This document shows, one piece after another, positions 3,523 through 59,785 of a stretch of 64,000 nucleotides of DNA (positions are counted from its first letter, which is position 1; each line of letters starts with the position of its first letter). Origin of the DNA: Eledone cirrhosa (Eukaryota); NCBI GenBank assembly GCA_964016885.1, contig OZ024744.1:76384001-76448000 (forward strand), given 5' to 3'. The notes beneath the pieces were generated by a model. It did no database searches, had not been told where the DNA came from, and saw nothing but the letters and a program-made list of their open reading frames with translations. A program made the translations under genes and the position numbers.

Positions 3523-4212
3523 ATCAAAGTTCTTTCGTTGCATATCTGCAACATCATCAGTGGTACTATTATGTTCCCTCCTATTGTATTGTAATGTCTA
3601 TGCCATTTTTATTTTATTTATTTATTTATTTGTTCTTGTCTCTGCGCATTCGATTGCGTGCGTGTATAATGTTTGGTGTGTGTGTTCGCATTTGAGTGTA
3701 TGTGTTATTGTTTTTGTATTCTATCTTTGTTCACCGGTGTGTTTTTATATGTGTTTGTTGTTATTGTGCTTGTTTATATATATATTTATTTATTTATTTA
3801 TTTATATGCTCTTAAGTCAGTACTGTTTGTTTGGGTATGGTTGTTGTTGTTATTCCATTCATTTTTTTCTGTTTAATTTTGGTCTTCTTAGTTCTATCTC
3901 AGTTGCTTCTCTGATTTGCCTATTGTAGAGTCATTTCTATGCTTAGATATTATTTTAATTTCTATGTTGTCTATATTACCATCATGTCTTTGTCTGGCGT
4001 GTTCGTATAGTACTGGACCGTTTTTTTTCCCTTTGCCCCCAGTGTTAGTCTATTCTTTCTCCTATGCTTCGCGCTGTCTCGCCTATGTATGTCGTTGTCA
4101 TGTTTCTGCAAGTATCCTCTGTACATCTTATGCTATAGACTAGATTTACAATTTATCTGAGGGCTCATTTTACATATAACACATTTCTTATTTGTACAGT
4201 GGGTTTTCTTAA
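3519..4212 (-). mobile_element. Penelope-like element 3' fragment: decayed GIY-YIG endonuclease plus hammerhead
   Basis: Manual minus-strand translation across frameshifts gives CTNKKCVIC...NLVYSIRC...TYIGETARSIGER...LYEHARQRH...QIREATEI..RRPKLNRK; downstream HHR core CTGATGA-t-GTTGCA-gata-TGCAAC-GAAA at 3560-3533; bounded by (TA)n. Confidence 0.75.
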
Positions 4213-16756: not shown

Positions 16757-16789
16757 CGCGGTGAGGTTTTTCAATTATAAACTGGACTG

Positions 16790-18558: not shown

Positions 18559-21217
18559 CTAGGAGTAATAATGCTTGTCTGACGTCATATCTAACTATAT
18601 AAAACCTAATACATTGACGATACTAAGACAATTCTAAGATTTGCTCTAATACGAGTTAATCCTAAATTTAAATTCTTTAAATATGCTTATTAGATATTTG
18701 GTAAAGTTCTCTGTACTACTTACATTCAAATTGTGGGTGACTGCTGGATGAGTTTATTCTTTTATTAAGGGTGTCTAAAATGTAAAAAGGCGTCTAATTT
18801 GCAGACTTCGGCGCCAACGAAACAACTCTTTAGAGCCACCAAAAAGTTCCACACCCTGAACGAGTTATCATAAAACAAAAGCTATTTCCTGGCGTTCTTT
18901 ATAATGCTGACATCGGTCATGATAATAGCAATGAATTCCCAGGATATACATATATATATATATACTAGCTAAACTACCCGTCCTTTTGACGGTTCAAGTA
19001 GCTTTCGATGTAGCTCATTAAACTAAACAAAGTAAATTTGAATACATAGAAGAAAAACGTACTTTATGTAAACATGAAAACCTTAGGCACTATTCCAGTG
19101 AAATAATTCGGTGTCATCCGTTATTCCATGTAACAACAGAAATCCAGTCTAGGTATACATTTTTTTCCCAACAGTAAAAGCGCATCATGAAATAGAGAAG
19201 TGAAGTGAATAATAGACACTATTATGTACATAGGTTGGAATAACAATACAGATTGGACACAACAGGGGGGAACTGATGGATGAGCAAATCGTTATAAAAA
19301 GAGGTGGATGTTGGGTGGGAGCACTCATTGTCTTTTGGATTATTGAAGAGCAGATTTATACACAACATTTTTGGTTTTCCCATCAGGAGCATAAATAAAT
19401 AGGTTGTCAGGGTTACCAACTCGAGAACAGCCAACGTAAAACTGACCATGTGAAAAGCAATGGGTTTTGAAGATCCAGACAAACAACTTTAAGAGATTGG
19501 TCTTGAGATTTGTTTATGGTCATTGCAAAACTAAGCGTGTGTGTGAATTGTAACCTTTTCATGGGAAATGGACAATCAGAAGGGGTAAAAGGAATTTTAG
19601 GAATAAAAACAGATTCATTTCGCCCGGGTCCTGTGATTATTTCTTCCTCAATTACAAGGTTCATCAGTTGCTTTACCACCAGTCTTGTTCCATTACAAAG
19701 AAGGGGGGGGGGGGGGAGTTAAATTACGTAGCAGGATAACAGGAGATCCACCTTTTAGATAAACTCCTGAGGAGGTAGTCCTGGAGGATCCTGAGAGTTA
19801 AGAAACTCTGGTGGGAAGTTGGTCACTTGATCAAAGTCTGTAACAGTGTCAACTGACTTGTAACAGCGTTGCATAGAGGGCAACTGACCAACTATTTCGT
19901 GATTGATCAGCTTAACAGCAGCATTTGTGGGTGCAAGAATAGCCCTCTCACAAAGCCAATTAGGATTCATGAATTCAGTTGAAAGATTTGGATAAACTGA
20001 AGAACATAAGTCATCGGGCGTTGAGACTGAGCGTCCAATGGTAGAAGTGTCAATGTGCCCATTGACGTCGGACTCAAGTTGACCATCACCGATTTGGAGG
20101 AGTTGAGTGGAAAATGGCGTAGACGGACGACTAGTTTGTAATAGCGATCGCATATTAATTGTTAGTTTTTGTACATCAACAAACTGCCAAAATGAGGACT
20201 TTTTAAGCAGGCGTCCACTTCATCAGCAGGTGATCCATTTGGTACCACGGGAAGTGTCTGTCTGAAGTTACCTGCGAGAAGAAGAGTGGCTCCTCCAAAT
20301 ATATTGTCATTAGATCTAAGATCTTTCATTGTGGTATCTAGTGCCTGAAGAGAGCCTTTATGGGACACGGTTGCCTCATCCCACACAATTAGTTTACAGC
20401 TTTTCAACAGAGCAGCTTCGTCAGAACTATGTGAGATATTGCAGATGGGATTCTCTTGATGGACGACGTTCAGTTGCAGCTTGAAGGTCGAGGGTGCTGT
20501 GCGCCACCTTCTAAAAGAGTCGCAGCTATACCGGAAGAGGCAACAGCAAGTGCAATGTCGCCATTCTGCCTTACCTTAGCAAGAATAAGATTAAGCAGAA
20601 ATGTTTTACTGGTCCCTCCAGGTGCATCTATGAAGATAATCCTGCCAGTATTGCTGTATACCTTGTTTAGAACGGATTATGCGCATTAAATGTCTTGCGT
20701 ATTAAATGATTATGCGCATTAAATGTCTTGCGTAGCATCTTGTTATGTGGAACAACACATTGATTGTCAATTGTAAATTCTCGGTTAGATCCATGTTTGA
20801 TTGTTGCTGTGAAACCGCCATGTCCAGGAGCCTTCTGAGATATATTGGGTAACCGTCGCTACCTGTGATCGTCTCAGCCAAAAGCTTTCGTGGATATTTC
20901 TTATTGCATTTTACGTTTGCCATGCACGAATACGTAGAATTAAAGTGCCGACATGGCCGATGAACCATATTTTTTCGAATGATTTCGTACAACTGGGGGG
21001 TCTTCATTGGGATTTGCACTTATGACTGTGTCCACGTCAGAAGGGCGAAGTTTGCATTGTAGCCAGAGTAAGATTTGGGCGTGAGGTAGACCACGTTTTT
21101 GCCATTCAACAGTATACATAAAACATTTGATCGGCCCGAAAATGTCACCACATTTAAACAAATCAATCATTTTACGAACTTTAAGATGAAAAACGCGAGC
21201 AGTGATATCATGGCGAT

Positions 21218-21677
21218 GTTACTTTATTTGTACTTGTGTCGACATTCACCCTGGACGGGTTGAGCCGGCTTCTTCCCTTGTCCTAACGGCATCCCGAACC
21301 ATGGCAGCCCACGCACGACGGTCTCGGGCTAGGTCACTGGAGATAGCGAGCCAGTCACGGTTTCATCGGCGCAGGCCGACCACCTGCGGACCTGAGAGTT
21401 CGGAGAGGTCCTCCTTGATCGTCGTTGCCCAGGTCTTCAGCTGCCCCCCAACGCGCTTGCGCCTGTTAGGGAGTGGATACGGGAGGAGAACATCGCGGAT
21501 CAGCTCACACTCAGGGCGCCGGGCTGCATGACCAAACCATCTCAAGCGCCGTTGCAGAAGCACTGAAGGAAGGGGTCGAAGATTCAGGCGAAGACAAAGA
21601 GTGGTGGTAGGTACCCGATCAACGCGTCGGCAGCGAAGAATGCGGCGGAGACAGTCATTGTCAAAGACCTCCAGCCA
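21218..21677 (-). mobile_element. RTE-clade LINE 3' fragment
   Basis: LEVFDNDCLRRIL...LQRRLRWFGHAARR...RKRVGGQLKTW (RTE/CR1-type C-terminus); short CAAGTA-like tail near 21218-21240. Confidence 0.75.
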
Positions 21678-21873
21678 TCATAGGCCATGTTGCTAAACAC
21701 AGAGTTCAAGATTTTGGCGAAGGTGCTAGCAAAGAGGTTGGCGCTTGTCGTTGGTGGTCTGCTGGGAGAGGCGCAGACATGTGCCATTCCAGACAGATCC
21801 ATCCAGGACAACCTGCACCTCATGCGATACATCGTGGAGAGGGTAAGCTAGGGAACCTGGTACGGGTGGGTCC
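21676..21873 (+). mobile_element. Tx1-clade LINE reverse transcriptase fragment
   Basis: Translates LLNTEFKILAKVLAKRLALVVGGLLGEAQTCAIPDRSIQDNLHLMRYIVERV. Confidence 0.8.
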
Positions 21874-21990
21874 TTGTGTGTCTGTGTGTGTGTTTGTGTG
21901 TGTATTTGTGTCTGTGTGTGGTTTTATGGTATATCTATAACACAACAACAGCAGCAACAACAACGACAACGACAACAACAGTAACAACAG

Positions 21991-22313
21991 CAATAATAAT
22001 AATAATAATGGTTTCTTTATTAACAACAAGGGTTTACACAAAGTAAGACATTAAGGACAGTACAGTACAATACAGGACAATACAGGACGGTACAAATGGG
22101 CATTTCTGCGAGTAAAAAAAAAAAAAAGGATGTGACAAAAAAGAAACAATGAAAAATTCCCCAGTAGGGGGGAGACGTCCGAAGACCATTGAGGAGAAAG
22201 CCCATTAAAAAAGCCACGGTGACCCTGACCACCAGGGCAAGTGCTCTCTCCCAGTTTTTCACCTTCAATTTACAGGCACATACTCAGAGTAGGCCCATTC
22301 ACTCGGGCCATTC
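21991..22313 (-). mobile_element. Tx1-clade LINE 3' end with (ATT)n tail
   Basis: Homologous to 27736-28090 and to 1-120. Confidence 0.8.
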
Positions 22314-24137
22314 TCATGGCGATCTGCGGGTCGTTGGCCCGGAAGTAAGCTCATTTGGATGTCCTCCCCTTTGGGGTTGCATGTGAACGTTATGAAAAGG
22401 TCAGGGCGGTTGTAAAGACGAACGTATGTGAGAGCCTCCTGCATCTTTTCATGCATATACCTCGTGCCGCCTGTATATAACGATGGCAGGATGATTCGAA
22501 TATCAACCTCAGAAGCAGTTACATTGTCATTGCTATTAACCTCGTCTCGAACCTTGGCATATTCATCTGCACAGAGCTGCTTTTGATTATGGCGAATCTA
22601 AAGAAGTCGTTCCGAGTCAATCTGCAAGAGTAAGGAATAGGATGGTTATGCAAAGATTTTAATAAAAATTATAGGTACACATGACTGAAAGGGGAGTAAA
22701 TCCTACCTTAGCATACATATCCACACAATACTGATTCAGAAGAGCCCCTACTCTGTGAAGACTGTTGAAGTTGTTCGTTCTAAGCACCAATCTGTAACTG
22801 TAGAAGTTCATCTGGGAAACCATTTTTGGAGGCTCTGCTGTTTGGTGTGTTGTAGGTACAATGGTAAGGATATCAGGACTGTATCCATTCTCTCCATAGG
22901 AAAAGAGTAAGGGGTATTGAAGGGCGTCATAGGCTGGACTTAGTTCATTGATCTTCTTAACACGGGAATCCTGCCACTCTAGGATGATATCTCTTTTGGA
23001 AAGAGTTGCATTGGGATTGCAAAGCAAAACAGCAACCTCCTCTGTTTCGGGTCGGTTGTAACAGCGGTGACGTTCCCCAAGAGGAATCCTGTCACTTCTA
23101 ATAACAACCTTAAAGTTGGCATTATCTGCCTGGCGTCGTTGAATAGCCGTTTTAAATTGGTTGATATACCGGTTGTGCTCATGAAGCATTTCCTGAAAAG
23201 GTCCAAGAACAGCCGTGTATATGCCTGGAGCAACAGCAGCCCTACGTGCAATTTGCTTTCTCTCTGGTCCCATAAAATATATCTGAAGAAAATTATGATG
23301 AGAAGCATCTGTTGGTAGAAGAGAACCGATTAAATGGTACGTCTATCCCTTAATGGTAAAAGTGGGATTAAAGTTTACATAAGATATGGGCCAAAACTTG
23401 TCATTTGAAATGCAGAAGAGTATGCCCGTATTTGGTTCATGAAATCTTGAGAATATGGATGCTCACCAAGCAGAAGGGACTTTAAAGGCTGTAGCGTTTC
23501 AGGGCTGTTGGGCAGAGAAACCTTTCCATTTGAGCAGCATAGATCAACAGGCTCTCCCGGCCAAGTACTTTACAGTGTAGACAGATTTTGGACATACGAC
23601 TAATGGCAACATCTTTGTGGTCAGCATAATTTTTAGAGGGGTCATAATGAAAGTCTTTAAAAACCCATATATTCCTCGTAGGCTTTGATGCACCAAGCAG
23701 AACAGCTTCATGATGCGCAATTGTTTGTAGTCGAGTAGTTCTTTCAACCAATGTTTCAGAAGCTATCGCAGCAGTCTGATAAGCACAATCGGAAGCCTGG
23801 CGACGTATACGTTGTTCAGGTGTCTCCGCAGCTCTCGAGACAGCAGTCGCGGCAGCATTACGTTTTGTTCGAGTTGCACGCTGTTCAGGTGTCTCCGCAG
23901 CTCTTGAGGCAGCAGTCGCGGCAGCATTCAGCGCTAACCGAATAGTATGTTCCTCTGTAGACTAATTTGATCGTGAAGCAGCAGTGGTTTGTGCATATTT
24001 TGCCATACGGGCCGCAATTTTTTCTACTGAGTATCAATGTGATGAATGCGAAGTATTGAGTCTTGCGTTGTAGGCAACTAATGTGGATAACCTAGTTGTC
24101 CTCTGCTCCTCAGTTTCATTAGCTCGACATTGCTTTC

Positions 24138-27100
24138 GCCAGCTCGTCTCCTTGAGGGAGCTGCAGTCCTGGATCAAGCGAAGGCCTAACGGCACTTCCA
24201 TGCCTGTAGAGTTTATCCCGAACTGGAAAAGCTCCTCGGTAGCACTGCCAGGCCAGGGATTTCTGGAAGTTGTCCATAGTCTCCGGCCCGAAAGTTCTTC
24301 CGAAGACATTGGCTAGTTGATTTTCGTCGACGCCTAGAGTTTCCCTAAGTACGTCGTCACTGTTCCCCTCCACTAATCCTCTATAGAACGCCAAGGTGGA
24401 GTTTCCACCGATCACATTTCCCGACTGGTCGAGGGCTATGAGAGCCTGAAGACATTCCAGTCGCCAAGCGCTCACTCACGGTCTTCGCTTGAACAAGGAC
24501 TGCAGCTCCGTCAAGGAGACGAGCTGTGGAAAGACGCGTCTAGCAAACGGCGACCACAACTGATCACCTTCGAGGAAGAGGTGGAGATGCCGTAGCCAGA
24601 GCGCGTGTCTGCGCATCATCAGCCACGGCTTGCCCAGCCCTCCTGACCATCGGAGCGTGTCTCTTCCACAAAAAGCGAAATAGCAAACGCTCCAGCGCAG
24701 TCAGGTGAGGTTTAGGACAAGGCACGACGGTCAGGCGGTAGTAGATGACGGACGGGATGTACGCATTCACCACCTCCGCTCGACCTTTGAGGGATAGCTT
24801 CTTCTCTGCCCATTTCTGGGTGAGAGAAGCCAACCTGCTCGTCACCTCGTCCCAGTTCTTGTCCGTCTGGCGGTCTGGACCGAACCAGACCCCTAGCAAT
24901 ATAACCGGCCCGTCCGTCCAGCGGCTGACGAGGTTGTTGGATGGCATGACCCTGCCTCTCCAGGTGCCGAGCTGCAGGCCCACCGACATTTCCTGGTTGA
25001 TCATTGCTCCTGTCACCGCCTCGTATTCACTTTGTGTAGTGCAGATTGCCACGATGTATTTGGCGGTCGACACCACTCCGGTGACATCGTCCGCATATGC
25101 TGACACGGAACTTCCGCATCCTAGTTCGCGCGGGACCCACCTCAACGTCTCCAGTTTGTGCAGTAATGGCTCCAGAGTCAATAAGTACAAGAGAGACTAG
25201 AGGGGACATCCTTGGCGGACCGAACGCATGATGTTGAACGGTGCCGAAAGGTGACCGTTCACTCTCACCACAGAGCAGATGTCGCTGTGCATGGCAGCGA
25301 TCTAGCCTCTGAAGACGGGCTCAAAGCCAGCCGCCCTCAGGACTGAAATTATCTATGTTATCCCCCTTGTTCTAATCCTTTCTCAGAAGCGCCACCGCTT
25401 CTCGGCTCACTGAGCTGGGAATTCTCCCCTTCTGTTGCCAGTTGCAGTAGACGTTCACCAAGAGCCCTCCGGACAAGCCTGGCATCTCTACGTAAAGTTC
25501 ATAGAGCAGACCATCCAAACCAGGTGATTTACCCTTTGTGCAGCCAGTCATTGCCTCCCGTACTTCAGCTGCTGTTATCGGCTTTTCGCAAAACTCCGCC
25601 TCAGTGCCCGACAACCGCAGTAGTCTGTCGAGGTAGACACTAAAGTCCATTCCTCGACCCGGCCCGCCGATGCCCCTGAACAACTGAGCGACGTGTCGCT
25701 GAAAAGCTTCACATATTTGCCCGGGATCGAGTAGCATGCGCCCGTCGTGGTCCACCAAAGAGCGGATCGTGGCTTTGTTGCCACGACGCGCCTAAGGGCC
25801 AATTTCGCCGCAAGTACGTCGTTTTGTTTTGATGCGTTTGTTGTGGGTTTGTTTCTGTTTCGCTTTTTGGTGACTTTTGTGGTGTTGGTGATGATGTTGT
25901 TGGGTTTAATGATGGTGTTGGTGTTGGTGTTTGTGGTGATGGGGTTGATGATGCTGGTGTGGATGGGCGCATAGATATCCTAACCTTTTTGTTTGTTAGT
26001 TTATTTGTTTCCCCCTGTATTTTGTTTTTGGAAGGGGAAGGAAGAGGATTTTTTTCTTTTGAGGGTTCTTTTTCTTTCTTTTTTTCTTGATACAGTTTCC
26101 CACTCCTCGTCGTCACAATCTGTCTCCATTTGCGATAGGTAGGGGAGTGGAAAATCTTCCACAGGCGTTGGTTTTGGCTGTGGCGTGGTGGATGGTGGAG
26201 GCGCTGGTGCTAGTTTTGGTGCGGTGGGTGGTGGTGGTGTTGGTTTTGCTACTGTTGCTGGGGTTGTTGCTGCTACAGTTGCTTCTGTTGTTGCTGCTAC
26301 AGTTGTTGCTGCCATTTCTGCTGCTGGTGGTGTTGATGGTTGAGTCACTTGGGTGGGTAAGAGAGGTGGCCTCAACTTTTTAGCCTGAGGGCAGAAATCC
26401 TTTAGGTGGGTTCTTTCACCACAAACGACACACCTAGGCCTTCTACCCTCAACGATTACGGTGAGGTGACTGCCGTCAGTGAGGTCTATCAGCTCTGGAA
26501 TTTCCTCTATGTATTTTTGGTCCGCTTGGATCAGGAGCTCCATCCCAGATCCGGACCAGTTCTGCTGCTTTTCTTTTGTTACCTCAATTATTTTGGTGTT
26601 GGCTTCGATGCCGGTGAGGACGGCAGCCATTAGCCAGGGAATTTCGATGGCCGGTGGAACGTAGGTCACCCTGATCTTCACGAGTCTCTGACCACAATAT
26701 CTTGGGTCGAGTGTGAAGTCGTCACTTCTTAATGAGGTCATGGAGTGCTCTCTCGCTTCCTGTGGTGTTCCAAAGAACACGTCTACAGTTCCATATTTCT
26801 GCCCACGTCTGATGTGGGTTTTTTCGCCCTCACATGTCCCAAAGCTTTTTGTATTATGGACTCGGATAACCTTTCCACTCGGTGTGCTTTTGTATTTATC
26901 GTCCGATATGACACGGTGCCTAGGCGCCGATGCTCCATTTTATTAGGTGGAGGTTGAGGCTGACCCTGTATCATCTTTTTTTACCATTCGCTTGGCTTCA
27001 TTTAATTCCTCCTGGCTTACCTCGATTGTTTCGCTTTTCTTGGCTGCTTTGGCAAACGACACATTTTGTTTTGCGGTGGTGTTGATGTTGTTGTTGTTAT

Positions 27101-27735
27101 TATCATTGTTGTTATTGCTTTTGTTGTTATTGTTATTTTTAGTTTTAGTTGTAGTGGAGGTGGTGGTGGTGTCAGTGGTGTTCGGCGTGGAAGAGTCGAT
27201 TCTGGGTGAATCCATTTCGATGTCACGAGATAATAATTTTTTTGTTTTGGTTTCTGATGTCGCTGTAGTGGTGGATGTCGCTGTAGTGGTGGTGGTGGTG
27301 GTATCAGTGGTGTTCGTTGTTCTTTTTGACATTGTGGTGGTGGGGGTGGCGGCTTTAACACCTGCAGTTATTGGTAATGGCGGGAAATCCATGCCTTCAT
27401 GCGGCAAATCTAAATAATTCAGGCTGCTATTAATTATACTTTCAGTGTTGGCAACCATGGCAAGGCTTACAATGGTGTTGGTGTTGGTGGTGTGGGGTAG
27501 GGGGGAGTTGGTCTGTTAAAAACAGTAAATTTGTCAAAGAAATATTTTGTTTGATAAATAAAAAGTTTAAGTTTTGGGCTCAAGGCCCCAATATTTTTTG
27601 TGTCCTTTTCAGAAAGCAATATATGTGAACTTATAAACACTTAACAACAAACATTTTCCATAGATGGCAATTTGAAAACAACTGAAAACAACAAACCTTT
27701 GCGGAGCTCACGATAATACGATTTCCTAAGTCGCC
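24138..27735 (-). mobile_element. Tx1-clade LINE copy A: 5' UTR, ORF1 and internally deleted ORF2
   Basis: ORF1 pieces 27458-26001 with CX2CX4HX4C knuckle (CVVCGERTHLKDFC); ORF2 remnants KSPGLDGL, SVRQGCPL, AYADDV, LSLKGRAEV; endonuclease region and part of RT deleted; 3' end lost. Confidence 0.9.
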
Positions 27736-27762
27736 AATAATAATAATAATAATAATAATAAC

Positions 27763-27801
<39 letters not shown>

Positions 27802-30800
27802 TTCTTTATTGGCCACAAGGGCTGACATCAAAAAAACATTACAGACGGTACAGGACGGTACGATGTGGGTTTTGTGCATGTAAAGATTTTTATTATTTAT
27901 ATAAGAAAATTAAAAAAAGACATAGAAACATATAAACAATAAAATTGAAAATTGAAACAATAAAAAATTGCCCAACAGGGCGGAAACCTCCGAGGGCTAT
28001 TCGTGGCGATAACCACAGAAAAGACCACGGCCACCCTGACCACCAGGGCAAGCGCCCTCTCTCAATTTTTCTCAACTTGCAAAAGTTACTTAGGGATTCG
28101 CCGAAGAGGAAAGTGTCTGTCTTTAACCCTTTCAACCTTGTCCACCACACAATCTCTTTCGCCATGTCCACCAGGTAGATGAAAACCGCCTGCCCTTCCT
28201 CATCGAAAGAAGACGCGAGACCATCTGCACAATGGACTCAGTCGATAACCGGATCAGTCCTACACGCGACAGCAACTGTTCGACACAGCTCCACAAGTCA
28301 GCAATGCTCGGGCACTGAACGAGTGCGTGCAGGACGGTTTCGTCGCTCTACGCGCATGTCGGACAGGCCTGTAGAGCTTATCTCGAATCGGCAACGCTCC
28401 CCGGTAGCACTGCCAGGCCAGGGATTTTTGGAAGTTATCTATAGGCCCGGGCTGAAATTTCTCCGGAAGAGAGCAAAGAGCTGATCTTCTTCGACGCCTA
28501 GGATCGCTCCGAGAACGTCGTCATTCTTCCCCTCCACTAGTCCTCTATAGAACGCCGAGGTGGATGTTCACCGATACTGTTGCCCAACTGGCAGAGGGCG
28601 GTGAGTGCCAGTTTCCAAGCGCTATCCCTCCGTCTTTTCTTGTCACAGGACTGCAGCTCCGTCAAGGAGACGAGCTGTGGGAAAACGTGCCTGGCGAACG
28701 GCGACCACACCTTTTCACCATCAAGGAAGCACCAGAGATGTCGCAGCCTCAGCGCATGTTTGCGCATCATCAGCTATGGCATGCCAAGTCATCCACGCAA
28801 CGTGTGTTGACAGCAAATGGATTTTCTGACAATGGGAGAGCGTCCCTTCCACAAAAAGCGGAAGAGGAGGCGCTCCATTTTGGTGAGTGAGAGTTGGGCT
28901 GGAGCAAAGGACGACGGTGAGGCGGTAGCAGATGACGGATGCGATGTACGCATTCGACACCTCTGCCCGGCCTTTCAGTGACAGCTTCCTCTCGGCCCAT
29001 TTCTGGGTGAGGGAGGCCACCCTGCTCGTCACCTCGCTCCAGTTTTTCTCCATCTGGAGGTCCGGTCCAAACCTGACCCCCAGCAATTTAACCGGTCCGT
29101 CCGTCCAACGCCCCACGACGCTGTCGGACGGCATGGACTTGCCACTCCAGGTGCCGAGCTGCAAGCCCACATACTTTTCCTGGTTTATCTTTGCTCATGT
29201 CACCGTTTAGCAGAGTTATGGGCCTGAAGTTATCGATAACATCCCCCTTGTTCGATTTCTTTCTCAGCAGCACCACCGCTCCCCGGCTCACAAAACTGGG
29301 AATGCTCCCGTTCTGCTGCCAGTTGCAGTAGACGTCTGCCAAGAGGTCACCGAACAAGTCTGGCATAAATGCATAAAGCTCGTAGGGCACACCATACAAA
29401 CCTGGCGATTTACTCCTCCTGCAGTTAGCCATCGCTTCCTGTATTTCACCGGCTGTTATTGACTTTTCGCAACAGTGTGCAGCAGTCGTCGAGAGCCGGG
29501 GCAGTATGTCGAGGTATGCACTGAAGTCCATACTCCGATCCGGCCCGCCGCTGCTCCCGAACAGTTCAGCAAAGTGCTGCTGAAAAGCCTCACACATCTG
29601 CTCGGGTTCGAGTAACACGCGCCCGTTTTGTTCAGATAAAGACTGAATTATGGCTTTGTTGCCACGTCGCGCCTCTGCCACCCGGGCCCATTGGACGGCT
29701 TTTGTCCCCTCGTGTTTCAGAGCACGCGATTTATCTCTGACAACGAAGCCTTCGTGTTTTGCGTTGAAGAATTGGTCGCGTGCCAATCTCGCCGCAAGCA
29801 CGTAGGTTGCGATGCATGTCCTAAACGCCTCTTCTAGCTTTCTGACTAGCTCTCCCTCTATTCTATTTACCTCTATCGCTACTTCTTTGCTAAACCTAAT
29901 CGATTCTACTTTAATTGCCCTTTTCAGGGCAAACCACCACCTGTTGTTGACGACCACTCCCGTCAACGCCCGGTTAAGTAATACGCTAATCCGGTCTCTG
30001 TAGACTTTGCGCGCAGGGAAAGACGCGTTCAGCTTCCAGTAACCAGGTCCTTGTATTTGAAATCTGTCTATGTCGATCTCACAGATCTCAAATTTCTGGT
30101 CTGTGTAGTCGACTATTTTAAATTGTGGACAACTTATACTAGCCTTATCTAGTTCTCTGCAGAATACCCTATCGAGATACGATCTGGATGACTCGATGCG
30201 GTTTATCCATGTCCACATTGGCACATTCGGGTAATCCAGTCGATACCTGTCAGACAGTTCAAAACGTCTGAGCAGGTTGGCGAGGCTCTTGCACCCTCCT
30301 CCCCTATCCACTAGCCCCACACAATCCAAGGCTAGTAGCTTGAAACCATTGCCTTCGCTGCCGGTCACGTCCAGCACCACCGACTTACCTTCTGAATCCA
30401 GGAAGATGGCCCGTATCGCGAGATCCAAGTCTCTCCGAAAAAGGACGGCAACCCCTCCCTCCGATCCTGGGCGGCTGGGAGATGCGTATACATCGTAGCC
30501 GCCGAAGATCGGTGCGAAGGCTCGTGCTTCGGAGATTCTGGTCTCGCTGATGGCCACCACGTCTATGTTTAGTAACCCGAGGTCGTTGAGCAGGTGACCC
30601 TGCTTCCAAGATGATACCAGGCAAAGTACATTTATACTGCCTATTATAAGTACGCCCATGTTGGATGAGAAACGGGGCAAGTGAGAAAGGGTCACTTACC
30701 TTGATCGTGTGGTGAAGGGACAGTAGAACCGTCGTTTTGATTGGTCATGGGGGTTTCCAACAGGATGTCAGTGTATATCCTCTTGGTAACCGAGTCTCTA

Positions 30801-32782: not shown

Positions 32783-32849
32783 ATATTTTATCTGATGAAA
32801 GCACACCATAATTTAACTTGGTATCCTTGAAATATGTATAATGAAATAT
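32783..32849 (+). ncRNA. Type I hammerhead ribozyme motif
   Basis: Stem I ATATTTTAT/ATGAAATAT (9 bp including one G-U), CTGATGA, stem II aag..acca/tggt..ctt, GAAA-T-ATGT-A-TA (AUA cleavage triplet). Confidence 0.75.
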
Positions 32850-32886
32850 ATATGGTTTTATAAATATAGTTTCCATTTGTTAATAT

Positions 32887-32991
<105 letters not shown>

Positions 32992-33030
32992 GATATTAAT
33001 AAATGGAAACTATATTTATAAAACCATATT

Positions 33031-33095
33031 TATTTCATTATATATATTTCAAGGATACCAAGTTAAATTATTGTATGCCTTCATCAGACAAAATA
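33031..33095 (-). ncRNA. Type I hammerhead ribozyme motif (inverted paralogue of 32783-32849)
   Basis: tattttgt-CTGATGA-aggcatac..gtatcctt-GAAA-T-ATAT-A-TA-atgaaata. Confidence 0.75.
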
Positions 33096-35716: not shown

Positions 35717-35937
35717 AAAAGTAAACAGAAATAACACAATCGTTACAGTCAGTATATGGAAGGTATATATTAGGTTAACGCTTGATATAGCAGGAAGAGG
35801 GTCTTAACGTTTCGAACGCTATTCCTTCATCAGAACAAAGAATGAGAAATAAAATAGATCAAAGGGACGGGTAGGATTGAATTGGAAAAAATATATTTAG
35901 ATACAAATAAGAGCTCCATTCATGTTGAAATCTCTTG
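35715..35937 (-). mobile_element. PLE pseudo-LTR fragment with minimal HHR (35801-35838)
   Basis: Minus strand reads CTGATGA-aggaatagcgttc-GAAACGTT-aagac; homologue of 2474-2692. Confidence 0.6.
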
Positions 35938-37161: not shown

Positions 37162-37450
37162 CCAGGCATGGGCAACCTTTTTCGAGAAGCGGGCGCCATG
37201 AGATATGGCTCATCATCAGGCGGGCTGCAAGCGCTAATTTACATTCGCGCCCACATTAGGTGGTAACAAAAGGGGTGGTAACTCAGGTTGTTTTGTTTGT
37301 TTCTTCAGAATTCGTACACGTTGTTTTCCTCGATCGTAAAAATGATAGAAAGATAAATTACGACTGAAAAGTTTCGGGTAAAAAAATCAGAAAGATGTCA
37401 CTTAGGTGACTTTCAGAAAGCTTTGCGGGCCGCAGGTTGCTCATGACTGG
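37162..37450. mobile_element. hAT-like MITE
   Basis: TIRs CCAGGCATGGGCAACCT / AGGTTGCTCATGACTGG; imperfect 8-bp TSD attttaac/tttttaat. Confidence 0.65.
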
Positions 37451-38718: not shown

Positions 38719-39259
38719 TTAACTTAAACATAACGATTATACCTTCATATACAGCTCAAGCATATTTCAACCATGACAACCCTCCCTTTTTTTCCTATGT
38801 GAATGGAACGTAGGACCCCACAAGTCAGTGATCATGTCACAGTTATTTCAGTGGTTGTGTGAGAACGCCACACACACTAGTGTTTCAGAATGTTTATCCA
38901 TCATCAGTAACGCTATTTACTTATTGCTGAGACAATAATAAGCTATAGCTTTTATACGTTTTACGTATAAAACATCCGTCCTTGGCTGGGTTGGATTATT
39001 TTGGCGTAGCACTAACATGTGTGATTCGTGATAATAGTGTATATAAAGACACATATGAAGGTCGTCGTTACGATTTCAAGGCATTGACAAAGAAAAGATG
39101 GGAGATACTTCTAGATTTATTCCTGTGGCCACTATGTTTTGTGAGCAGATATGATAATGGGTTTGATAAACGGGTAAAGAATAGGGTGATCCCTGCAAGA
39201 TACATTTTTGATACGGAATGCTAACAGACTCAATTTGCTTCTTATCACCAATAAAGAGT

Positions 39260-47046: not shown

Positions 47047-47267
47047 GAGAATGTCTGTCTGTGTCCCTAAAACTCGAGAACCACCCAATCTGTTGTTTTA
47101 ATATATATATATATATAATTATATATTCGTGTACAGATATTTTTGCATACACAATAACAAAATATAAACAAACGTATTTATTTCACGAGACTCGATAAGG
47201 ATAAATATATATCAAATATATAAGAACCCTAGAGCAAATCCCGAGCAATGCCGGGCCATTCTGCTAG
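47035..47267 (+). mobile_element. Short non-autonomous Helitron (same family as 49761-50675)
   Basis: 5' part matches the 5' end of the Helitron at 56563; 3' hairpin CCCG-agcaatgc-CGGG then CTAG|T. Confidence 0.75.
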
Positions 47268-49068: not shown

Positions 49069-49550
49069 CACTTCCTGAACATGCAACCCCGTTCTTCCCC
49101 CAACCCTTACTTTCACACACACACACACGTACACCTACACACACACACCACCTTCAGCCCTCCCCGCTCGGACACCCGTCTCCCTCTCCCCACTCCACCC
49201 GCAACCACCCCTACACACCCCACACCCTTCCACCACCTGTTTTACTCCTTTTTAATTTCAGTTTATTTTGATCATGCTTTTATATTTAATTTTATTTCAT
49301 CCCTTGTATTTTGATCATGCTTTATTTTTGCTTTTATTTTTAATTTCATTCGCACCGTTTCCTTTCGCTATATGTCTCTCCACCACTCCCCTACACACCC
49401 TTTGAACTCTGTTCCCACACACTTCTCACCTGAGGAAGGGCTTATGCCCGAAACGTCGTTCCCCACCAACACCCCACTCTCCAGAGCGTGAAATTAATAA
49501 ACATTCGTTGTACTGCCTCTCTGTTTTGTTCCTGTTCAAATTTTTCCATT
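47836..49550 (+). mobile_element. Penelope-like element 3' region: GIY-YIG C-terminal remnant, C/A-rich tract and minimal HHR
   Basis: [22 protein letters not shown] (~47858-47923) fits the PLE endonuclease end R..EQ..IF.L.T..P.GLN; HHR CTGAGGA-a-GGGC-ttat-GCCC-GAAACGTC at 49430-49457; (TA)n on both sides. Confidence 0.65.
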
Positions 49551-50703: not shown

Positions 50704-53700
50704 CTAGCATAGGCACCCGGCGTTGCCCCGGAATGAATTTGTTCCTTACATATTAGAAGAAAAGAGCAAAATATGTTGTATAGAAATGTGTTATTCAATA
50801 TTCAATTTATTCTTCAATTGGGACACACGATGAAATCAATTCTGAGTTCATAAAAAAAAATTGTTGTGAGCAAAATAAATTTCCAATTTCATGAAGGAGG
50901 CGAGGGGGGCTAAGAAAGGGTCGTGTGTGTGTTCACCTTTAACCAAAGGAAGCAAATGTTGTTAGGAAAAATATGTAAAGGTAAACAGGGTTTGTTAAGA
51001 AGAGCGATAATGTACCTGCCTGTCTATTGAAGCGCTTATAACACTGTTTTAGCAGATGGTGGTCGATATGAATTTACCATTGCTGTAGCCATCAAACAAT
51101 TTTAAGTAGGGCCTCTTAAATAGGGCTGTGTGTGCGTTCACTGACAGCCCTAAAAACGAAGGCTCACCATCAACAATTTCGGCCCTAAAAAGGGCTGTTT
51201 GATCGTTCGCTTGCAGCCCTAGAAAGGACTCTGACTGCGTTCTCCAATGCCGCAAAAAGTACTTAAGTTGCGTTCATTGGCAGCCATTAGAATGACTCTG
51301 TATGCGTTCACGATTTGTTCAGCCGCCTTAAATTGCCGCGCCGATTGTCAAGCTGGGTTCCTCTATGAAGGCGATCACCTTTAACCGAGGGAAACATACG
51401 TTTTAGTTAAGAGACTGTTTAAAAGCTCATCAGGCTGGCTAAAGAAATGTGATTACCGACCTATCTCCTCGCTGTTACATTCACAACACTTCGTTGTAAA
51501 CGATGTTTCTTATTTTTCCTCGGCGTGCAAATGCGAAAAGACTTTCCCTACTGCCCACCCTAGAGCACGCAACATACAATTGTCCGTGGGAGAAACATGG
51601 TTTTCCAGAAGAAGTCCGGCCACAGAAAGAGTCTGGCCCTGGGACTTGTTGATGGGATCTGGCATCGTGTCAACAGATTTGCAATTGTGAAGAACACCAG
51701 GAAGGGAGTGCAGTAATTGGTCGTTGGTTTTGTTAACAGCGACGTTTTTTGGAGCTAGCACTACTCTTTCACACAACCATGCGTGGTTCTGGTAATTGTC
51801 TCTCAAATCTGGAAACACTTTCTTTGTCTTTCAGCTCCCCCGCAGAATTAACTGAGGTCGAAAATGGCCACACTTCCAACTCTCCTGCAGCGTCCAGAGG
51901 TATTTTGCCGTCGCCAAGTTTCAAATGTCCTGTGCAAATTCTGCGAACGCTTGATCGCCGTGTAATTGAACTCTCATGTTGGTTGTAAGAATCAGTGTCC
52001 TGACATGGCGCCACAGAGGAGAGGACTTTAGGCATGCTTGGACCTCATCTGCTCTTGTGCCTTTGGGAATGACGGGAAGAGTCTGCCAGATGTCACCCGA
52101 AAGCAGAAGCGTAACACCTCCCATGGGAGCCTGGCAGCCTCTGGTGTCTTTTAGATCTCTGTTTAATGCGTCCAGAGCTCCCTTATGGGCCATGGTGCAC
52201 TCATCCCACACAATGAGCTGACATCGGAGGTCTTGCTGATGCTGCAAGTAGGCGTTTCTGACGTTGTTAAATTGAGAAGCAATTTAAAACTGCCACCGGG
52301 CAACAAAATGGCTGCAATTCCAGAAGAGGCAACAGCAACCGCAATGTCCTTGTGCATCCTGACTTTTGCAAGGAGGAGTCCCGTTAAAAAGGTTTTGCCC
52401 GTCTCTGCAGGAGCATCCAGAAACAACATACCTCCTTTTCAGTGGTGCACATGGTCGGCAACAATGGTGTAAGCACGACGTTGGTCCGGAAGAAGTTGTG
52501 GTCCAGTTTCAAGGACGTACTTGGTAAGAGCATCGACGTCGTAGGGAGTTTCTCGGAGAAGAGCTGTAGGAAGTACGTTTGACCCTGTACGGATTGTTTG
52601 GGGCAGACCATATGAGGGCAAATAATTTCCGCCGAGTGATGCAACTCTATCCTCTATGTCAATCAACGCTAGATTGAATACCTCGTCGCTGGTACATTTG
52701 TAGTCCTCAGATAAGTCATATTTATACTTGAGCCATAAAGAGATGGGATTACTCAGTTCGCAAGTTTGCAGCGGTAATGCAAATAGAGATCGTAGGCGCA
52801 TAGGCAATTGAGATGCAATAGCTTCGAATAAAGTGGAATCCCACTGCGCACCGTCTTCTAGCAGGCTGCGCTTGAAGCAAGCTTCCCTGTAAGTGCTGCA
52901 CACAGAACTGTCGGCAGTTCTAAGGTCATGAAAGGACTGGGTCATCTAACCTCATGTAGCAGAAGACGGAGGTAGAAGCACTCATGCTGGTTCGGGTGCA
53001 CTGTGTATACACTCCCTAGGCAACTGTCAAACTTTATGCCAGGATGTCCATCAACAGGCTGACCTACCTTTCTGCGAACCCATTGTTTTTTATTCCACGT
53101 GTAATAGGACGGCACCTGAGGATACAGCAGGGTTTGAGCAAATGAATCGGCCTGACAAAGTTTGAAGAATGCAGTGAGGGTGATTTCCCGTGGTTCCTCC
53201 ACCATTTGAGCAGCATTAACGTCAGTGAAGTACACCCTTTGACCGTTCTCCAGGTGGACTGCGAGCTGTTCAATTGCAGGGTGCCTTTGGTGTATAGGGA
53301 AGCCGAAAATACGCTAGAAAGCCTCGTTGCTGCTGATGTAACGGCCAACTTGGTATTGCGTGACCTCATCACGGCTGTTGTCCTGTTGAAGACCGAACAT
53401 AGCAGCGTCTGAACCCTTATTCACATATTTACATATGTACTTGATTGACTCGGCGGAATTACAGAACTCGACATTGATGTGAGCACCGAAAGTCTTTAAA
53501 AGAAAAGGGCAGTATGGCACTATCCATCTGTTGTCGACCTCGTGCTGTCCAACTGTTGCTGTAAAACCATCGTCTCCGGGTTGGCGTCTCCTGTACAGTG
53601 GGTATCCGTCAACGCCTGTCTGAGTTTCTTGGAGGAACATTCGGGGAAATATTTTGCTGCAGACATTGTCGTTCAAGCAAGGTGAGTTTAAATTGAAGCC

Positions 53701-56204
53701 CCGCCCACATGAACCATGGACAATGTTTGTCTTCACTATGTCATAGAAGTCTTTGTCTATAGACGGATCGTGAAACTCTATGGAGATGATGCTGTCAATG
53801 TCATTTGAAGATATTTTTGTTAACAGCCAAATGAGGATGTGGGCGTGCGGTAGGCCCCTCTTCTGCCACTCTACGGTGTACATGTCGCACTTTACTGGGT
53901 CAAAGACTTGGCCTCTATTGATGAGCTCCATGAGATTGATAAGCTTCAGCCGAAAGACTGGGGCCAGGAGGTCATGCCTGTCTTTGGCCTGTTGCTCTTG
54001 GAATAGTTCTGCCCCGATCTCCTTCCACTTAGGGTTGCAAGTGAATGTGATGAACAGATCGGGCCTGCTGTAATGCCGTACGTAGGTCATAGCATCCTGC
54101 GTTCTCTCGTGCATGTAGCGCGGACTTCCGGTGAAGGTGGAGGGGGAGAATGCAGACTTTTCCTACGCTGCTGGGAGCTGCGTCGTTGTTGATGGCATCT
54201 CGGAGATGGATGTAGCTCGGACCGCAGTTGCCTTTAGTGTGACCGTATGAAAGACAGTCTCTCCGATTTCATGTTTGCGCACATATCAACGGCAAATTGC
54301 TGAAGTAGGTCTCTTGACTGGTGCAAGTGATTGAAGGAATCGTGGCGAACCATGAAGCGGTAGGAGTAGAAATCCATGCATGAAACTGGTTTTTTGACGG
54401 AGTGTTGAGGGTTTACTGGATTATGCTGGTGAATTCCCTACTGATAGCCGTCCTCACCATTTACAAAGAGAAGTGGATACTGGAGCGCATCGTAAGACCT
54501 ATGTGTTTCGCTGATTCTCTGAAGAGTGCTATCTCGACGCTTGAGGACAATGTCTCGTGGATTATGCTGACCCCCATGCATAAGTACAGCGATTTCATTG
54601 CATGCAGGATAATTATACCGACCCGGATGCTCTCCAGATGGAATTTTCGAGGCATCAATTACCACATTAAAATTGGCTGTGGTAATTACCACATTAAAAT
54701 TGGCTGCTTCCAAGGCATACTTGAAGCTAATGACATAGCTGTTTTTTGTGTGCAGAATGTGTTGTAATTTCCTTATGAGCTCGACATTGGTACCGGGTGA
54801 AATGAAGTTCCTCATGGCTGCTTTCTCGTTGACATTCCCAACAAAGTACAGCTGAAGAAATTGAGGTTCTTGATTGGCGGCAGATTGGAGGGATCCGACT
54901 CTATGGTACACCTGACCTTGAACCGTAAATGAGGGCATAAATCCGCCTTCCTTGACAATGTTCGCCCCGAAAGATGTCATTGGAAAGCACAGTTATACAT
55001 CCGGATATAAGTCAGGAAATGCCGTGACTCCGCAGTACTGCCTGAATATAGGAGCTTCAACGGTTGTGGTGGATCCTCCAGGGGACGTAATTTTATTTTC
55101 CATTTGCGCAACACAAGCCAGGTGTTTCTCCGGGCCACATTTTTGCATTGCAGAAAGAGCACGTCTTTGACATACTCCCAATTCGCATGTCTGGATGGCC
55201 ACTGTAATCAATGTCTCGTTCTTGCGAGGTCTGTGTAGCTTGCACAGCAGCAGTATTCGCAGAATCCGTATTCCGACGTCTTTTACGCTGGTCGTACGTC
55301 TCGGCAGCTCGCGCAGCAGCAGTATTCACAGCATCCGTACTCCGCCGTCTTTTACGCTGGTCGTACGTCCCGGCAGCTCGCGCAGCAGCAGTATTCACAG
55401 CATCCGTACTCCGGCGTCTTTTACGCTGGTCGTCCGTCTCGGCTGCTCGTGCACCATAAGTTGATGCGGCATTATCGGTTCGGCGAATGGTTCGTTGATT
55501 GTCTGTTTCAAGTGCTCTTCTGGTGGCAGTACCTTTAGCATCTTGCGACCGTCGAATAGCAGATTCCACTGATGATTCGTTTGCCCGCCCTGTTCGTGTT
55601 GTTGCTGCTTTCGCAGTTTTTCGGCCAATGGAGTATCTCTTCCTTCGAGGCATGACCTAAAAGCAGGCCGAAGTACACTGAAACTCACTGGTAGAGTAAG
55701 GAGTAAACTCGTCAGTGAATTAAAAACCGATGCATGTGATTTCCGAACGGGGTATGGATAGGGAAAGGGGTAACAGTAAGAGCAGCGGTTGGGATGAGTG
55801 TAAGTTAGTGAATATGTTGTCAGTGACAAAAATGGCGTAAATGAAACGCCACACGCAAGTACACACACACACTGCAGCACGCAAACTCACACACACACAT
55901 GTTAATAGATTTAACTCATAATTGAACCCTGCGCGCACGCACACACACACGCGCACATGCACACATACGCGCGCGCACGCACGCACGCACGCACGCACGC
56001 ACACACACGTGTTAATTACTTATAGCTTTCCTTCCCCTCTTCCAACGTCTCTCTCTCTCTCTCCCGCTACCCCCCTCTTTTAGTATGTCTGTTTTTTTCA
56101 TTCTCACTCTTTCTCTTTATAACTCACTCACATTAACACTAAAGGGTTAAGGTATTGTTCTCAAAATAAATAATATTAAATCTATGAGAAAAAGACGGCG
56201 TCTG

Positions 56205-56563: not shown

Positions 56564-56879
56564 TAATATATATAATACGACATTCCTCTCTCTTTCTTCC
56601 TCTGTCTTTTTAGATACATAGCTATAACGTTGCGCCCTTATAATATCTGTATGTATGTCTGCCTGTCTGCATTGACTTCGCTTCTAACCAACTTTTAATT
56701 CATTATATATATATAATTATATTGGAATAAATGCTCTGAAGTAGCGATATATATGTGAATATAGACATAGAATATTCGAAAATATTCTGTATGTTTATAA
56801 TAAACATTTTGAAGACCTAATCGCTATAGAATAGAATACGTCACGTATTACAATTAGATTCTCGATAAAAGCAAGGGAA

Positions 56880-56922
56880 GTAATCTACGCGTTTCATTCT
56901 TGTTAGAAATCATCAGGACTAC
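56880..56922 (-). ncRNA. Type I hammerhead ribozyme (repeated every 310 bp; 6 minus-strand copies)
   Basis: GTAGTC-CTGATGA-t-TTCT-aaca-AGAA-t-GAAA-C-GC-G-TA-GATTAC; palindromic ACGCGT stem III; 16-bp inverted repeat extends stem I. Confidence 0.85.
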
Positions 56923-58802
56923 ATATCCAGTGCTTTTATCGAGAATGACACAGCTAGAGACTTATAGAATACTTAGCTGTGTACAGGAACTGGTTTGAAA
57001 GAGCGGTTGCCGGTCCGGCAGAAATTAGAAATTGGAATAAATGCTCTGAAGTAGCGATATATATGTGAATATAGACATAGAATATTCGAAAATATTCTGT
57101 ATGTTTATAATAAACATTTTGAAGACCTAATCGCTATAGAATAGAATACGTCACGTATTACAATTAGATTCTCGATAAAAGCAAGGGAAGTAATCTACGC
57201 GTTTCATTCTTGTTAGAAATCATCAGGACTACATATCCAGTGCTTTTATCGAGAATGACACAGCTAGAGACTTATAGAATACTTAGCTGTGTACAGGAAC
57301 TGGTTTGAAAGAGCGGTTGCCGGTCCGGCAGAAATTAGAAATTGGAATAAATGCTCTGAAGTAGCGATATATATGTGAATATAGACATAGAATATTCGAA
57401 AATATTCTGTATGTTTATAATAAACATTTTGAAGACCTAATCGCTATAGAATAGAATACGTCACGTATTACAATTAGATTCTCGATAAAAGCAAGGGAAG
57501 TAATCTACGCGTTTCATTCTTGTTAGAAATCATCAGGACTACATATCCAGTGCTTTTATCGAGAATGACACAGCTAGAGACTTATAGAATACTTAGCTGT
57601 GTACAGGAACTGGTTTGAAAGAGCGGTTGCCGGTCCGGCAGAAATTAGAAATTGGAATAAATGCTCTGAAGTAGCGATATATATGTGAATATAGACATAG
57701 AATATTCGAAAATATTCTGTATGTTTATAATAAACATTTTGAAGACCTAATCGCTATAGAATAGAATACGTCACGTATTACAATTAGATTCTCGATAAAA
57801 GCAAGGGAAGTAATCTACGCGTTTCATTCTTGTTAGAAATCATCAGGACTACATATCCAGTGCTTTTATCGAGAATGACACAGCTAGAGACTTATAGAAT
57901 ACTTAGCTGTGTACAGGAACTGGTTTGAAAGAGCGGTTGCCGGTCCGGCAGAAATTAGAAATTGGAATAAATGCTCTGAAGTAGCGATATATATGTGAAT
58001 ATAGACATAGAATATTCGAAAATATTCTGTATGTTTATAATAAACATTTTGAAGACCTAATCGCTATAGAATAGAATACGTCACGTATTACAATTAGATT
58101 CTCGATAAAAGCAAGGGAAGTAATCTACGCGTTTCATTCTTGTTAGAAATCATCAGGACTACATATCCAGTGCTTTTATCGAGAATGACACAGCTAGAGA
58201 CTTATAGAATACTTAGCTGTGTACAGGAACTGGTTTGAAAGAGCGGTTGCCGGTCCGGCAGAAATTAGAAATTGGAATAAATGCTCTGAAGTAGCGATAT
58301 ATATGTGAATATAGACATAGAATATTCGAAAATATTCTGTATGTTTATAATAAACATTTTGAAGACCTAATCGCTATAGAATAGAATACGTCACGTATTA
58401 CAATTAGATTCTCGATAAAAGCAAGGGAAGTAATCTACGCGTTTCATTCTTGTTAGAAATCATCAGGACTACATATCCAGTGCTTTTATCGAGAATGACA
58501 CAGCTAGAGACTTATAGAATACTTAGCTGTGTACAGGAACTGGTTTGAAAGAGCGGTTGCCGGTCCGGCAGAAATTAGAAATTGGAATTAGCGATTAGGT
58601 CTTCAAAATGTTTATTATAAACATACAGAATATTTTCGAATATTCTATGTCTATATTCACATATATATCGCTACTTCAGAGCATTTATTCCAATTTCTAA
58701 TTTCTGCCGGACCGGCAACCGCTCTTTCAAACCAGTTCCTGTACACAGCTAAGTATTCTATAAGTCTCTAGCTGTGTCATTCTCGATAAAAGCACTGGAT
58801 AT

Positions 58803-58845
58803 GTAGTCCTGATGATTTCTAACAAGAATGAAACGCGTAGATTAC
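58803..58845 (+). ncRNA. Type I hammerhead ribozyme (also at 59113-59155 and 59423-59465)
   Basis: Same motif read directly on the + strand; predicted cleavage after GTA at 58839. Confidence 0.85.
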
Positions 58846-59605
58846 TTCCCTTGCTTTTATCGAGAATCTAATTGTAATACGTGACGTATTCTATTCTATA
58901 GCGATTAGGTCTTCAAAATGTTTATTATAAACATACAGAATATTTTCGAATATTCTATGTCTATATTCACATATATATCGCTACTTCAGAGCATTTATTC
59001 CAATTTCTAATTTCTGCCGGACCGGCAACCGCTCTTTCAAACCAGTTCCTGTACACAGCTAAGTATTCTATAAGTCTCTAGCTGTGTCATTCTCGATAAA
59101 AGCACTGGATATGTAGTCCTGATGATTTCTAACAAGAATGAAACGCGTAGATTACTTCCCTTGCTTTTATCGAGAATCTAATTGTAATACGTGACGTATT
59201 CTATTCTATAGCGATTAGGTCTTCAAAATGTTTATTATAAACATACAGAATATTTTCGAATATTCTATGTCTATATTCACATATATATCGCTACTTCAGA
59301 GCATTTATTCCAATTTCTAATTTCTGCCGGACCGGCAACCGCTCTTTCAAACCAGTTCCTGTACACAGCTAAGTATTCTATAAGTCTCTAGCTGTGTCAT
59401 TCTCGATAAAAGCACTGGATATGTAGTCCTGATGATTTCTAACAAGAATGAAACGCGTAGATTACTTCCCTTGCTTTTATCGAGAATCTAATTGTAATAC
59501 GTGACGTATTCTATTCTATAGCGATTAGGTCTTCAAAATGTTTATTATAAACATACAGAATATTTTCGAATATTCTATGTCTATATTCATATAATTATAT
59601 ATTCG

Positions 59606-59785
59606 TGTACATATTTTGAACAGTAATACTATATATTTTCAACAGTAATACTATACTATACTATATATTTTTAACAGTAATACTATACTATACTGTATAT
59701 TTTCAACAGTAATACTATACTATACTATATATTTTCAACAATAATACTATACTATAATATATATTTTCAACAGTAATACTATAGT
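59606..59785. repeat. ~31-bp minisatellite (ttttcaacagtaatactatactatactatata)
   Basis: About 6 imperfect copies. Confidence 0.85.

Follow-up and report, generated by a model that had tools for sequence, protein, structure and literature searches.

In the accessible text of the papers that describe them, metazoan non-LTR retrozymes consist of non-coding tandem units of 170–400 nt with low GC content and one type I hammerhead each (PMC7229834; Li et al. 2026). Their copies are flanked by duplications of more than 4 bp, and Penelope-like elements (PLEs) occur in the same genome (PMC7229834; bioRxiv 10.64898/2026.07.22.740005). A circular RNA template has been proposed for these elements (PMC7229834), and a cycle in which PLEs mobilise them through such circles is, as far as the same portions of text go, already proposed but not shown (PMC7229834; Li et al. 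2026). EN+ PLEs, as the available parts of two further papers describe them, leave an inverted 5'-truncated copy and a tail of 30–40 bp at one end, and insert into (TA)n targets (PMC8557442, PMC3846280). The PLE Poseidon from green anole cuts and extends both DNA strands at AT-rich DNA in vitro (Frangieh et al. 2024, PMC11167929). Reverse transcription starts inside the RNA, at two adjacent sites that delimit the tail and lie downstream of the hammerhead; in this system the ribozyme is dispensable, uncleaved RNA is used, and the start site is the same for both strands (PMC11167929). Finally, if L1 twin priming works as the accessible part of its description has it, the first arm should end at the second priming site (PMC2837659).

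Here we describe an insertion that combines traits of these systems. It lies in the window, the whole 64,000-nucleotide stretch of Eledone cirrhosa DNA that was analysed. Unit positions are counted from window position 58589, which is position 1 of the repeated unit. The features are as follows.

56660–56710, plus strand: left part of the host repeat, which continues uninterrupted into the right part in paralogues
56711–56722: left copy of the 12-bp target-site duplication, a word within the (AT)n tract of an older host repeat
56723–58588, minus strand: tail-bearing arm, 6.0 identical units, inner end at unit 99, sense 3' end at unit 104
56880–58472, minus strand: six hammerhead motifs, with cores ending at 56916, 57226, 57536, 57846, 58156 and 58466
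58589–59588, plus strand: tail-less arm with 3.2 identical units, running from its inner end at unit 1 to a sense 3' end at unit 70
58658–58694, plus strand: segment between the inferred priming sites, the PLE-type "tail" (unit 70–106), with an AT tract at 73–80
58774–58868, plus strand: long helix (about 16 bp) predicted by folding to extend stem I and close the unit into a rod
58803–58845, plus strand: type I hammerhead motif of the first plus-strand unit; cores at 58809, 59119 and 59429, with a 310-nt period
59589–59600: right copy of the 12-bp target-site duplication, the same 12-nt word
59601–59783, plus strand: right part of the host repeat with a 32-bp tandem, defined by paralogue comparison

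A preliminary description of this DNA had reported identical 310-bp units, six on the minus and three on the plus strand, with the sense pointing outward from a switch at 58588/58589. Comparison of the units confirmed each of these points. Every base of both arms matches a single 310-nt unit with a GC fraction of about 0.34, and the 9.3 units of the window do not differ from each other. Including the AT shared with the target, the left arm covers 56721–58588 on the minus strand (unit 99 to 106, 1,868 nt, 6.03 units). The right arm, including one shared end base, covers 58589–59589 on the plus strand (unit 1 to 71, 1,001 nt, 3.23 units). The strand switch is blunt. The first nucleotides of the right arm match the continuation of the left arm over 7 nt, which had suggested a microhomology joint; we set this aside because the joint is blunt and 13 nt are missing. 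The block contains no open reading frame of 150 or more amino acids, and poly(A) is absent from the insertion. Unit size, low GC content and one hammerhead per unit, together with duplications of more than 4 bp and PLEs in the genome, resemble metazoan non-LTR retrozymes as the accessible text presents them.

The target-site duplication is real. The flanking 12-nt word proposed earlier stands at 56711 and again at 59589, and related sites without the insertion carry it once. Exact matches to the uninterrupted site number 111 across the genome; of the 12 empty sites retrieved, 11 consist of the left flank of the window, one copy of the word and the right flank of the window. The word itself is a palindrome, and the last 2 nt of its left copy also match the unit end. 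The empty-site controls originally named within the window (near 47113 and 50213) did not hold up: only about 35–40 nt around the word are common, and both flanks differ. Among 11 informative loci with an interrupted AT tract elsewhere, eight carry a duplication of 11–14 nt, which measures 12 nt in six cases, and three (L078, L079 and L090) show no duplication of that length. The duplications at L089 and L181 were read by eye. An AT-rich or (TA)n target is seen in the flanks of the sampled loci; the search patterns required AT at one end and left the other end free.

Other copies of the repeat are abundant. An internal 18-mer has 17,825 exact genomic matches, corresponding to at least 17,825 units, and exact matching also found 1,099 ends at unit 106 followed by AT and 607 ends at unit 72–80 followed by AT. 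Despite this abundance, no candidate came back when a 111-nt piece was searched against the genome; counts from such DNA searches therefore badly understate the family. Our main sample comprises 97 of the first 100 listed places with the 106 end, taken in position order on contig C1; we excluded L031, which was analysed separately, an internal hit in L168 and a further array within L108. In this sample 90 of the 97 loci are two-armed with outward sense, five are single-armed and two adjoin gaps. All 90 two-armed loci have their other end at unit 68–80. Since this sample was chosen by one end, we selected 29 further loci by the 72–80 end, without the exact 106 pattern. Sixteen of these are two-armed with the far end at 100–114, 12 are single-armed and one is interrupted by a gap. 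In no case do both ends lie near 80. The sampled copies show duplications, inversions and a variable phase of the inner ends, features for which the preliminary description had proposed to search. Its framing of the block as an unusual single event of L1-type twin priming is not supported, since two-armed insertion is the usual mode of the family: the block in the window is one young insertion, ordinary for its family.

The outer ends follow a rule. The last informative base is A104 at one end and C70 (48 loci) or C72 (26 loci) at the other, and therefore two sites 32–34 nt apart are used; the insertion in the window is of the C70 type. In the 90 and 16 two-armed loci the same site is never used at both ends. 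The one exception is a structure in L036 (G000:C6:87876700-87886600), one of nine loci found by DNA search. This locus contains two copies of one insertion with a common inner junction and another inverted hammerhead repeat in between; the second copy has both ends at unit 106 and looks like a later rearrangement. Fixed ends at 1,099 places and the duplications at eight of 11 informative loci indicate dispersal with duplications longer than 4 bp, as for retrozymes. The inverted 5'-truncated arm (in 90 of the 97 loci), the one-sided tail and the AT target are those of a non-autonomous PLE, while the block lacks the open reading frame with reverse transcriptase (RT) and GIY-YIG domains that defines an autonomous one. 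Compared with EN+ PLEs as the available sections portray them, the head-to-head arm, the one-sided tail of about 32–34 nt, the AT-microsatellite target and the duplication of about 10–12 bp are shared; in contrast, our element has no open reading frame, and both of its arms are multi-lap concatemers of one monomer. In summary, the element has the sequence features of a non-LTR retrozyme and appears to work like a non-autonomous PLE.

For inner ends and arm lengths we analysed 85 two-armed loci of simple structure. Inner ends are spread almost evenly round the unit (Kolmogorov–Smirnov p 0.59 and 0.37; Rayleigh p 0.30 and 0.031); by the Rayleigh test alone, the secondary ends are weakly non-uniform. 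Arm lengths fit exponentials (p 0.29 and 0.28) with means of 5.1 and 4.2 units, and the lengths of the two arms are weakly correlated (rho 0.31, p 0.0035). Both arms exceed one unit in 68 of the loci, and at least one predicted cut site is crossed by 78 and 81 of the 85 arms, respectively. One arm of the family reaches about 45 units. A pile-up of arm ends at the cut site is ruled out, given that 0 and 5 of the 85 inner ends lie within 5 nt of it, with 3.0 expected in each case. The junctions between the arms show overlaps of at least 2 nt in 37 loci, of 1 nt in 13, blunt joints in 13 and inserted bases in 22.

This geometry bears on the twin-priming reading offered earlier. A staggered cut, priming from both strands and outward arms are retained from that reading. 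The L1 type of the process, in which the arms abut, is rejected: inner ends at unit 60–90 occur in 11 of the 85 loci, with 8.5 expected, and there is no poly(A). The accessible account of L1 twin or dual priming (Meyer et al. 2010, PMC2837659) matches our insertions in the primers provided by a staggered cut and in the outward arms inside a duplication. Unlike L1 as presented there, these insertions lack poly(A) and use a second site that is fixed rather than opportunistic. In addition, the arms overlap over many laps instead of abutting with a deletion, and do so as a rule rather than occasionally. We conclude that paired priming of the PLE type is very probably responsible for the two arms.

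We then turned to the hammerhead. The block contains nine cores 310 nt apart, six on the minus and three on the plus strand, and core and stems of a type I hammerhead motif are present in all nine full units. The preliminary claim of one hammerhead per unit is thus upheld at the level of the motif; cleavage is predicted. The cut would fall at 58839/58840, after unit position 251. The best Rfam match is Hammerhead_HH9 with an E value of 0.025, below its gathering score, and at gathering scores Rfam gave no match in the window. The motif has a 6-bp stem I extended by the long helix, a stem II with a U-U at its base and a stem III that consists of one pair with a palindromic tetraloop. The assignment follows the hammerhead core numbering, with position 7 free. 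The monomer folds better than 100 of 100 shuffled sequences (z = -4.5). The unconstrained fold is not a hammerhead (-31.9 kcal/mol, versus -25.2 kcal/mol for the hammerhead-constrained form). As far as the available text allows comparison, the ribozyme combines the one-pair stem III and palindromic tetraloop of HHR_Amex1 with the U-U stem II base of HHR_Amex2 (PMC7229834; Li et al. 2026). For the retrozymes of those papers, circles and cleavage of the RNA are documented in the portions available, whereas the present family is known from DNA sequence alone. Outside the block, the window contains 11 more hammerhead-core-like motifs, against 1.5 expected in all, including those at 3533–3560, 32792–33087, 35810–35833, 37180–37219, 38883–38907 and 49430–49453.

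Variants in the ribozyme differ sharply according to whether they were inherited. Of the substitutions shared by a whole array, none of nine breaks the core or a pairing, while 16 of 17 singletons do (Fisher p 3e-6); these classes depend on our own pairing scheme, exclude four indels and count one core deletion. Array-wide variants keep the structure, and therefore the propagated templates seem to have kept a working motif. This pattern fits a step of cleavage and circularisation, and appears opposite to what long uncleaved templates would favour. As in Poseidon, two adjacent internal start sites bound the tail downstream of the hammerhead. Unlike in Poseidon, within an insertion each strand starts from its own site, and the variants that were propagated conserve the ribozyme.

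Haplotypes provide a second line of evidence on the template. Both arms carry the same haplotype at 66 of 70 loci, compared with 11.2% for arms of different loci. The 79 loci with at least three units contain 30 array-wide haplotypes, 21 of which were seen once, and singletons are rare (118 in 270,422 bp, or 4.4 per 10,000 bp). Because of this identity of the two arms, the many array-wide haplotypes and the low singleton load, the arrays appear to be rebuilt from one monomer very often. If both primers instead copied the same end of a linear array with the singleton load of today, sharing of minority alleles between arms should be common. Where an offset is covered in both arms, 76 minority alleles are confined to one arm, with sharing only in L088 and L107. 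In L107 (G000:C1:136716500-136726400) the two outer units have one haplotype, followed by another, in both arms; L088 has one variant at the same offset in both arms. Such patterns cannot arise from a monomer circle without coupled template switching. From them it also follows that the two enzymes are able to begin within a single unit and copy one and the same stretch. Together with L078, which is a mosaic, and L167, the arms of which differ at one site, these loci fit linear or oligomeric templates or coupled switching. In the long arrays L067, L068 and L092 minority alleles are shared among non-adjacent units, which shows later shuffling. Two array-wide 1-nt insertions are located 2 nt from the cut site, and the variants of the arrays contain no per-lap scars at this site. 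We consider it probable that a circular monomer is the main template. The earlier suggestion of rolling on circular RNA is supported to the extent that the template is probably a circle, and needs correction in that two loci argue for linear multimers.

One base of the window is peculiar. At unit position 86 (58674 and its repeats) the haplotype of the window is unlike nearly all loci sampled by position, and the same base recurs on several backgrounds among the best hits. Either recurrent change or template recombination would account for it.

Relative to retrozymes as their accessible descriptions portray them, the two-armed inversion, the fixed paired priming sites, the haplotype identity of the arms and the selection on the ribozyme stand out. 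A literature search that covered openly available main texts yielded no account of retrozyme insertions with two arms, of start sites split between strands or of ribozyme selection.

The alternative that deserves most attention keeps the same PLE enzyme and the two priming sites, and has an array transcript, either linear, long and uncleaved or a large oligomer, take the place of the circle. Variants at the same offset in both arms of L107 and L088 speak for such a template, L078 fits one that is heterogeneous, uncleaved RNA is the main substrate in vitro (PMC11167929), and the absence of a pile-up at the cut site would be equally expected. Yet shared offsets are confined to two of 70 loci against the 76 unshared alleles, and arms reach about 45 units. 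Furthermore, the 21 of 30 homogeneous haplotypes that occur once would call for repeated steps from monomer to multimer, and a transcript that need not be cleaved should favour ribozyme-dead variants, none of which was inherited. We regard this alternative as unlikely. Growth in place is much less likely still: here short PLE-type insertions would expand later by unequal crossing-over or slippage and be homogenised by gene conversion. The shuffled alleles of L067, L068 and L092 speak for it, and local amplification is favoured for Xenopus arrays in the available text of Li et al. 2026. Against it, the window shows no difference among 9.3 units, most minority alleles are singletons, and private haplotypes are shared across the inversion at loci of which 68 in 85 have both arms longer than one unit. 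The exponential lengths also argue against growth in place, the start of which would in any case need a terminally redundant template.

A circle could also be mimicked by an enzyme that jumps repeatedly from the 5' end to the 3' end of a cleaved linear monomer. This process would likewise yield homogeneous arrays and need an active ribozyme, and the two array-wide insertions 2 nt from the cut site could be its traces; however, arm ends do not accumulate at the cut site (0 and 5 of 85, with 3.0 expected each) and scars from each lap are missing there, which makes it highly improbable. We attach the least credence of all to the idea that the inversion is a fold-back artefact of assembly or reads, or that the second arm arose by self-priming of cDNA on the first. 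No run contig among the matches listed bridges 58588/58589, the arms of L100 and L184 are exact mirrors, and self-priming has been proposed for inversions of rotifer PLEs in the accessible part of PMC3846280. However, mirror fold-back is ruled out as a rule: near-mirror junctions (within 15 nt) were found at nine of the 85 loci with 8.5 expected, and the second arm is longer than the first in 37. The inner junctions are not palindromic as a rule, in contrast to the rotifer junctions that this source uses to argue for self-priming. Moreover, the outer ends differ by rule, the duplication was checked against empty paralogues, and run contigs contain other minus-to-plus joints as well as AT-tailed ends at 69 and 80.

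The reading we prefer is therefore one of paired priming on a circle. It seems fairly likely that the family is an abundant 310-nt non-LTR retrozyme, pasted by the RT and GIY-YIG activities of a PLE that copies one RNA, probably a circle, from both sides of the cut. Arrays would be transcribed, and the hammerhead, probably as a dimer, would cut the transcript to monomers that are ligated to circles. The enzyme would nick both strands about 12 nt apart. One 3' end would then prime at unit ~104 with at most 2 nt of pairing, and the other would pair with the AU tract at unit 73–80. Both enzymes would circle the template with strand displacement and stop at random, and end-joining with short microhomology would link the two cDNA ends. 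In a minority of events, multimeric templates or a template switch are probably involved. A more specific version, which we advance tentatively and with slightly less than even confidence, has a PLE dimer hold one 310-nt circle at two fixed sites about 33 nt apart, nick (AT)n 12 nt apart and run two simultaneous rolling-circle reverse transcriptions on that one circle.

Which PLE might supply the enzyme? The genome is rich in PLEs: at least 150 GIY-YIG matches were scored among 10,597 candidates, and RT and GIY-YIG domains occur in one frame at L150, L153, L154 and L125. L150:2773-8960 (G000:C1:145868000-145877900) is a PLE with a 938-aa RT plus GIY-YIG frame; its terminal repeats are 99–100% identical, and it ends in (AT)n. 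The last 8 nt of its AT-adjacent end are common with a minor end of the retrozyme at unit 113. L150 is only a lead for the mobilising partner. Among 25 GIY-YIG loci, 12 RT loci and 11 loci of diverged relatives, drawn from thousands of candidates, neither a pLTR nor another PLE repeat resembled the unit. Another PLE family (L155-L166), which is older, has a minimal hammerhead-like motif about 45 nt from the AT-adjacent end.

Older sister repeats (L040:2695-3383, L042, L046 and L116, on C2, C7 and C1 of G000) are about 75% identical to the retrozyme over unit 1–176. They carry different hammerheads, and L040 ends at the same AT tract. Their sequences suggest that the sister repeats may have kept an enzyme-binding module (the priming region, unit 1–176) and swapped ribozymes. 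The open reading frames beside the sister arrays L040 and L043 were rejected as partners, being adjacent insertions at shared AT targets.

A near-identical unit is present in twenty sequencing runs with 17 organism labels from 16 studies; no RNA run is among the matches listed. Four of these runs were examined. X3 looks like deep host DNA. In X1 the ratio of unit to host repeats is similar, with a depth about a thousand times lower; X2 and X4 contain the unit at a depth of 10–12 and the host repeat hardly or not at all. The unit in runs with other labels is most simply read as trace carry-over. Because it would explain the pattern among the runs, we do not claim horizontal transfer, nor do we exclude it. 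Closed 340-nt contigs in X2 and X4 were discarded as candidates for RNA circles, since such contigs are expected from a collapsed tandem array.

Broken Helitron remains lie just to the left of the block (52439–55656; Helitron_like_N, E 5e-38), and frames at 19755–23961 resemble Helitron remains, with no Pfam match. The window also contains decayed frames of a non-LTR retrotransposon at 24564–30695 (endonuclease domain, E 2e-6) and an 11.3-kb GT-rich pentamer satellite with strong strand skew at 5424–16767.

The origin of tandem and inverted PLE insertions is stated as unresolved in the accessible text of PMC8557442. With more than 1,000 young insertions that obey measurable rules, the family described here is an unusually clean record of this unresolved mechanism. 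The rules are the stagger of about 12 nt, the strand-split start sites, one haplotype per event, exponential arms and selection on the ribozyme, and each is testable in the existing in vitro PLE system. If the version with paired initiation on one circle is true, it would have left its trace in all EN+ PLEs as the inverted copy and the one-sided tail, and conservation of the ribozyme would prove from the genome that the circle step cannot be dispensed with. If the preferred reading holds, the family is a natural case of target-primed rolling-circle reverse transcription, by which about 5.5 Mb (17,825 x 310) were added to the genome of one animal.
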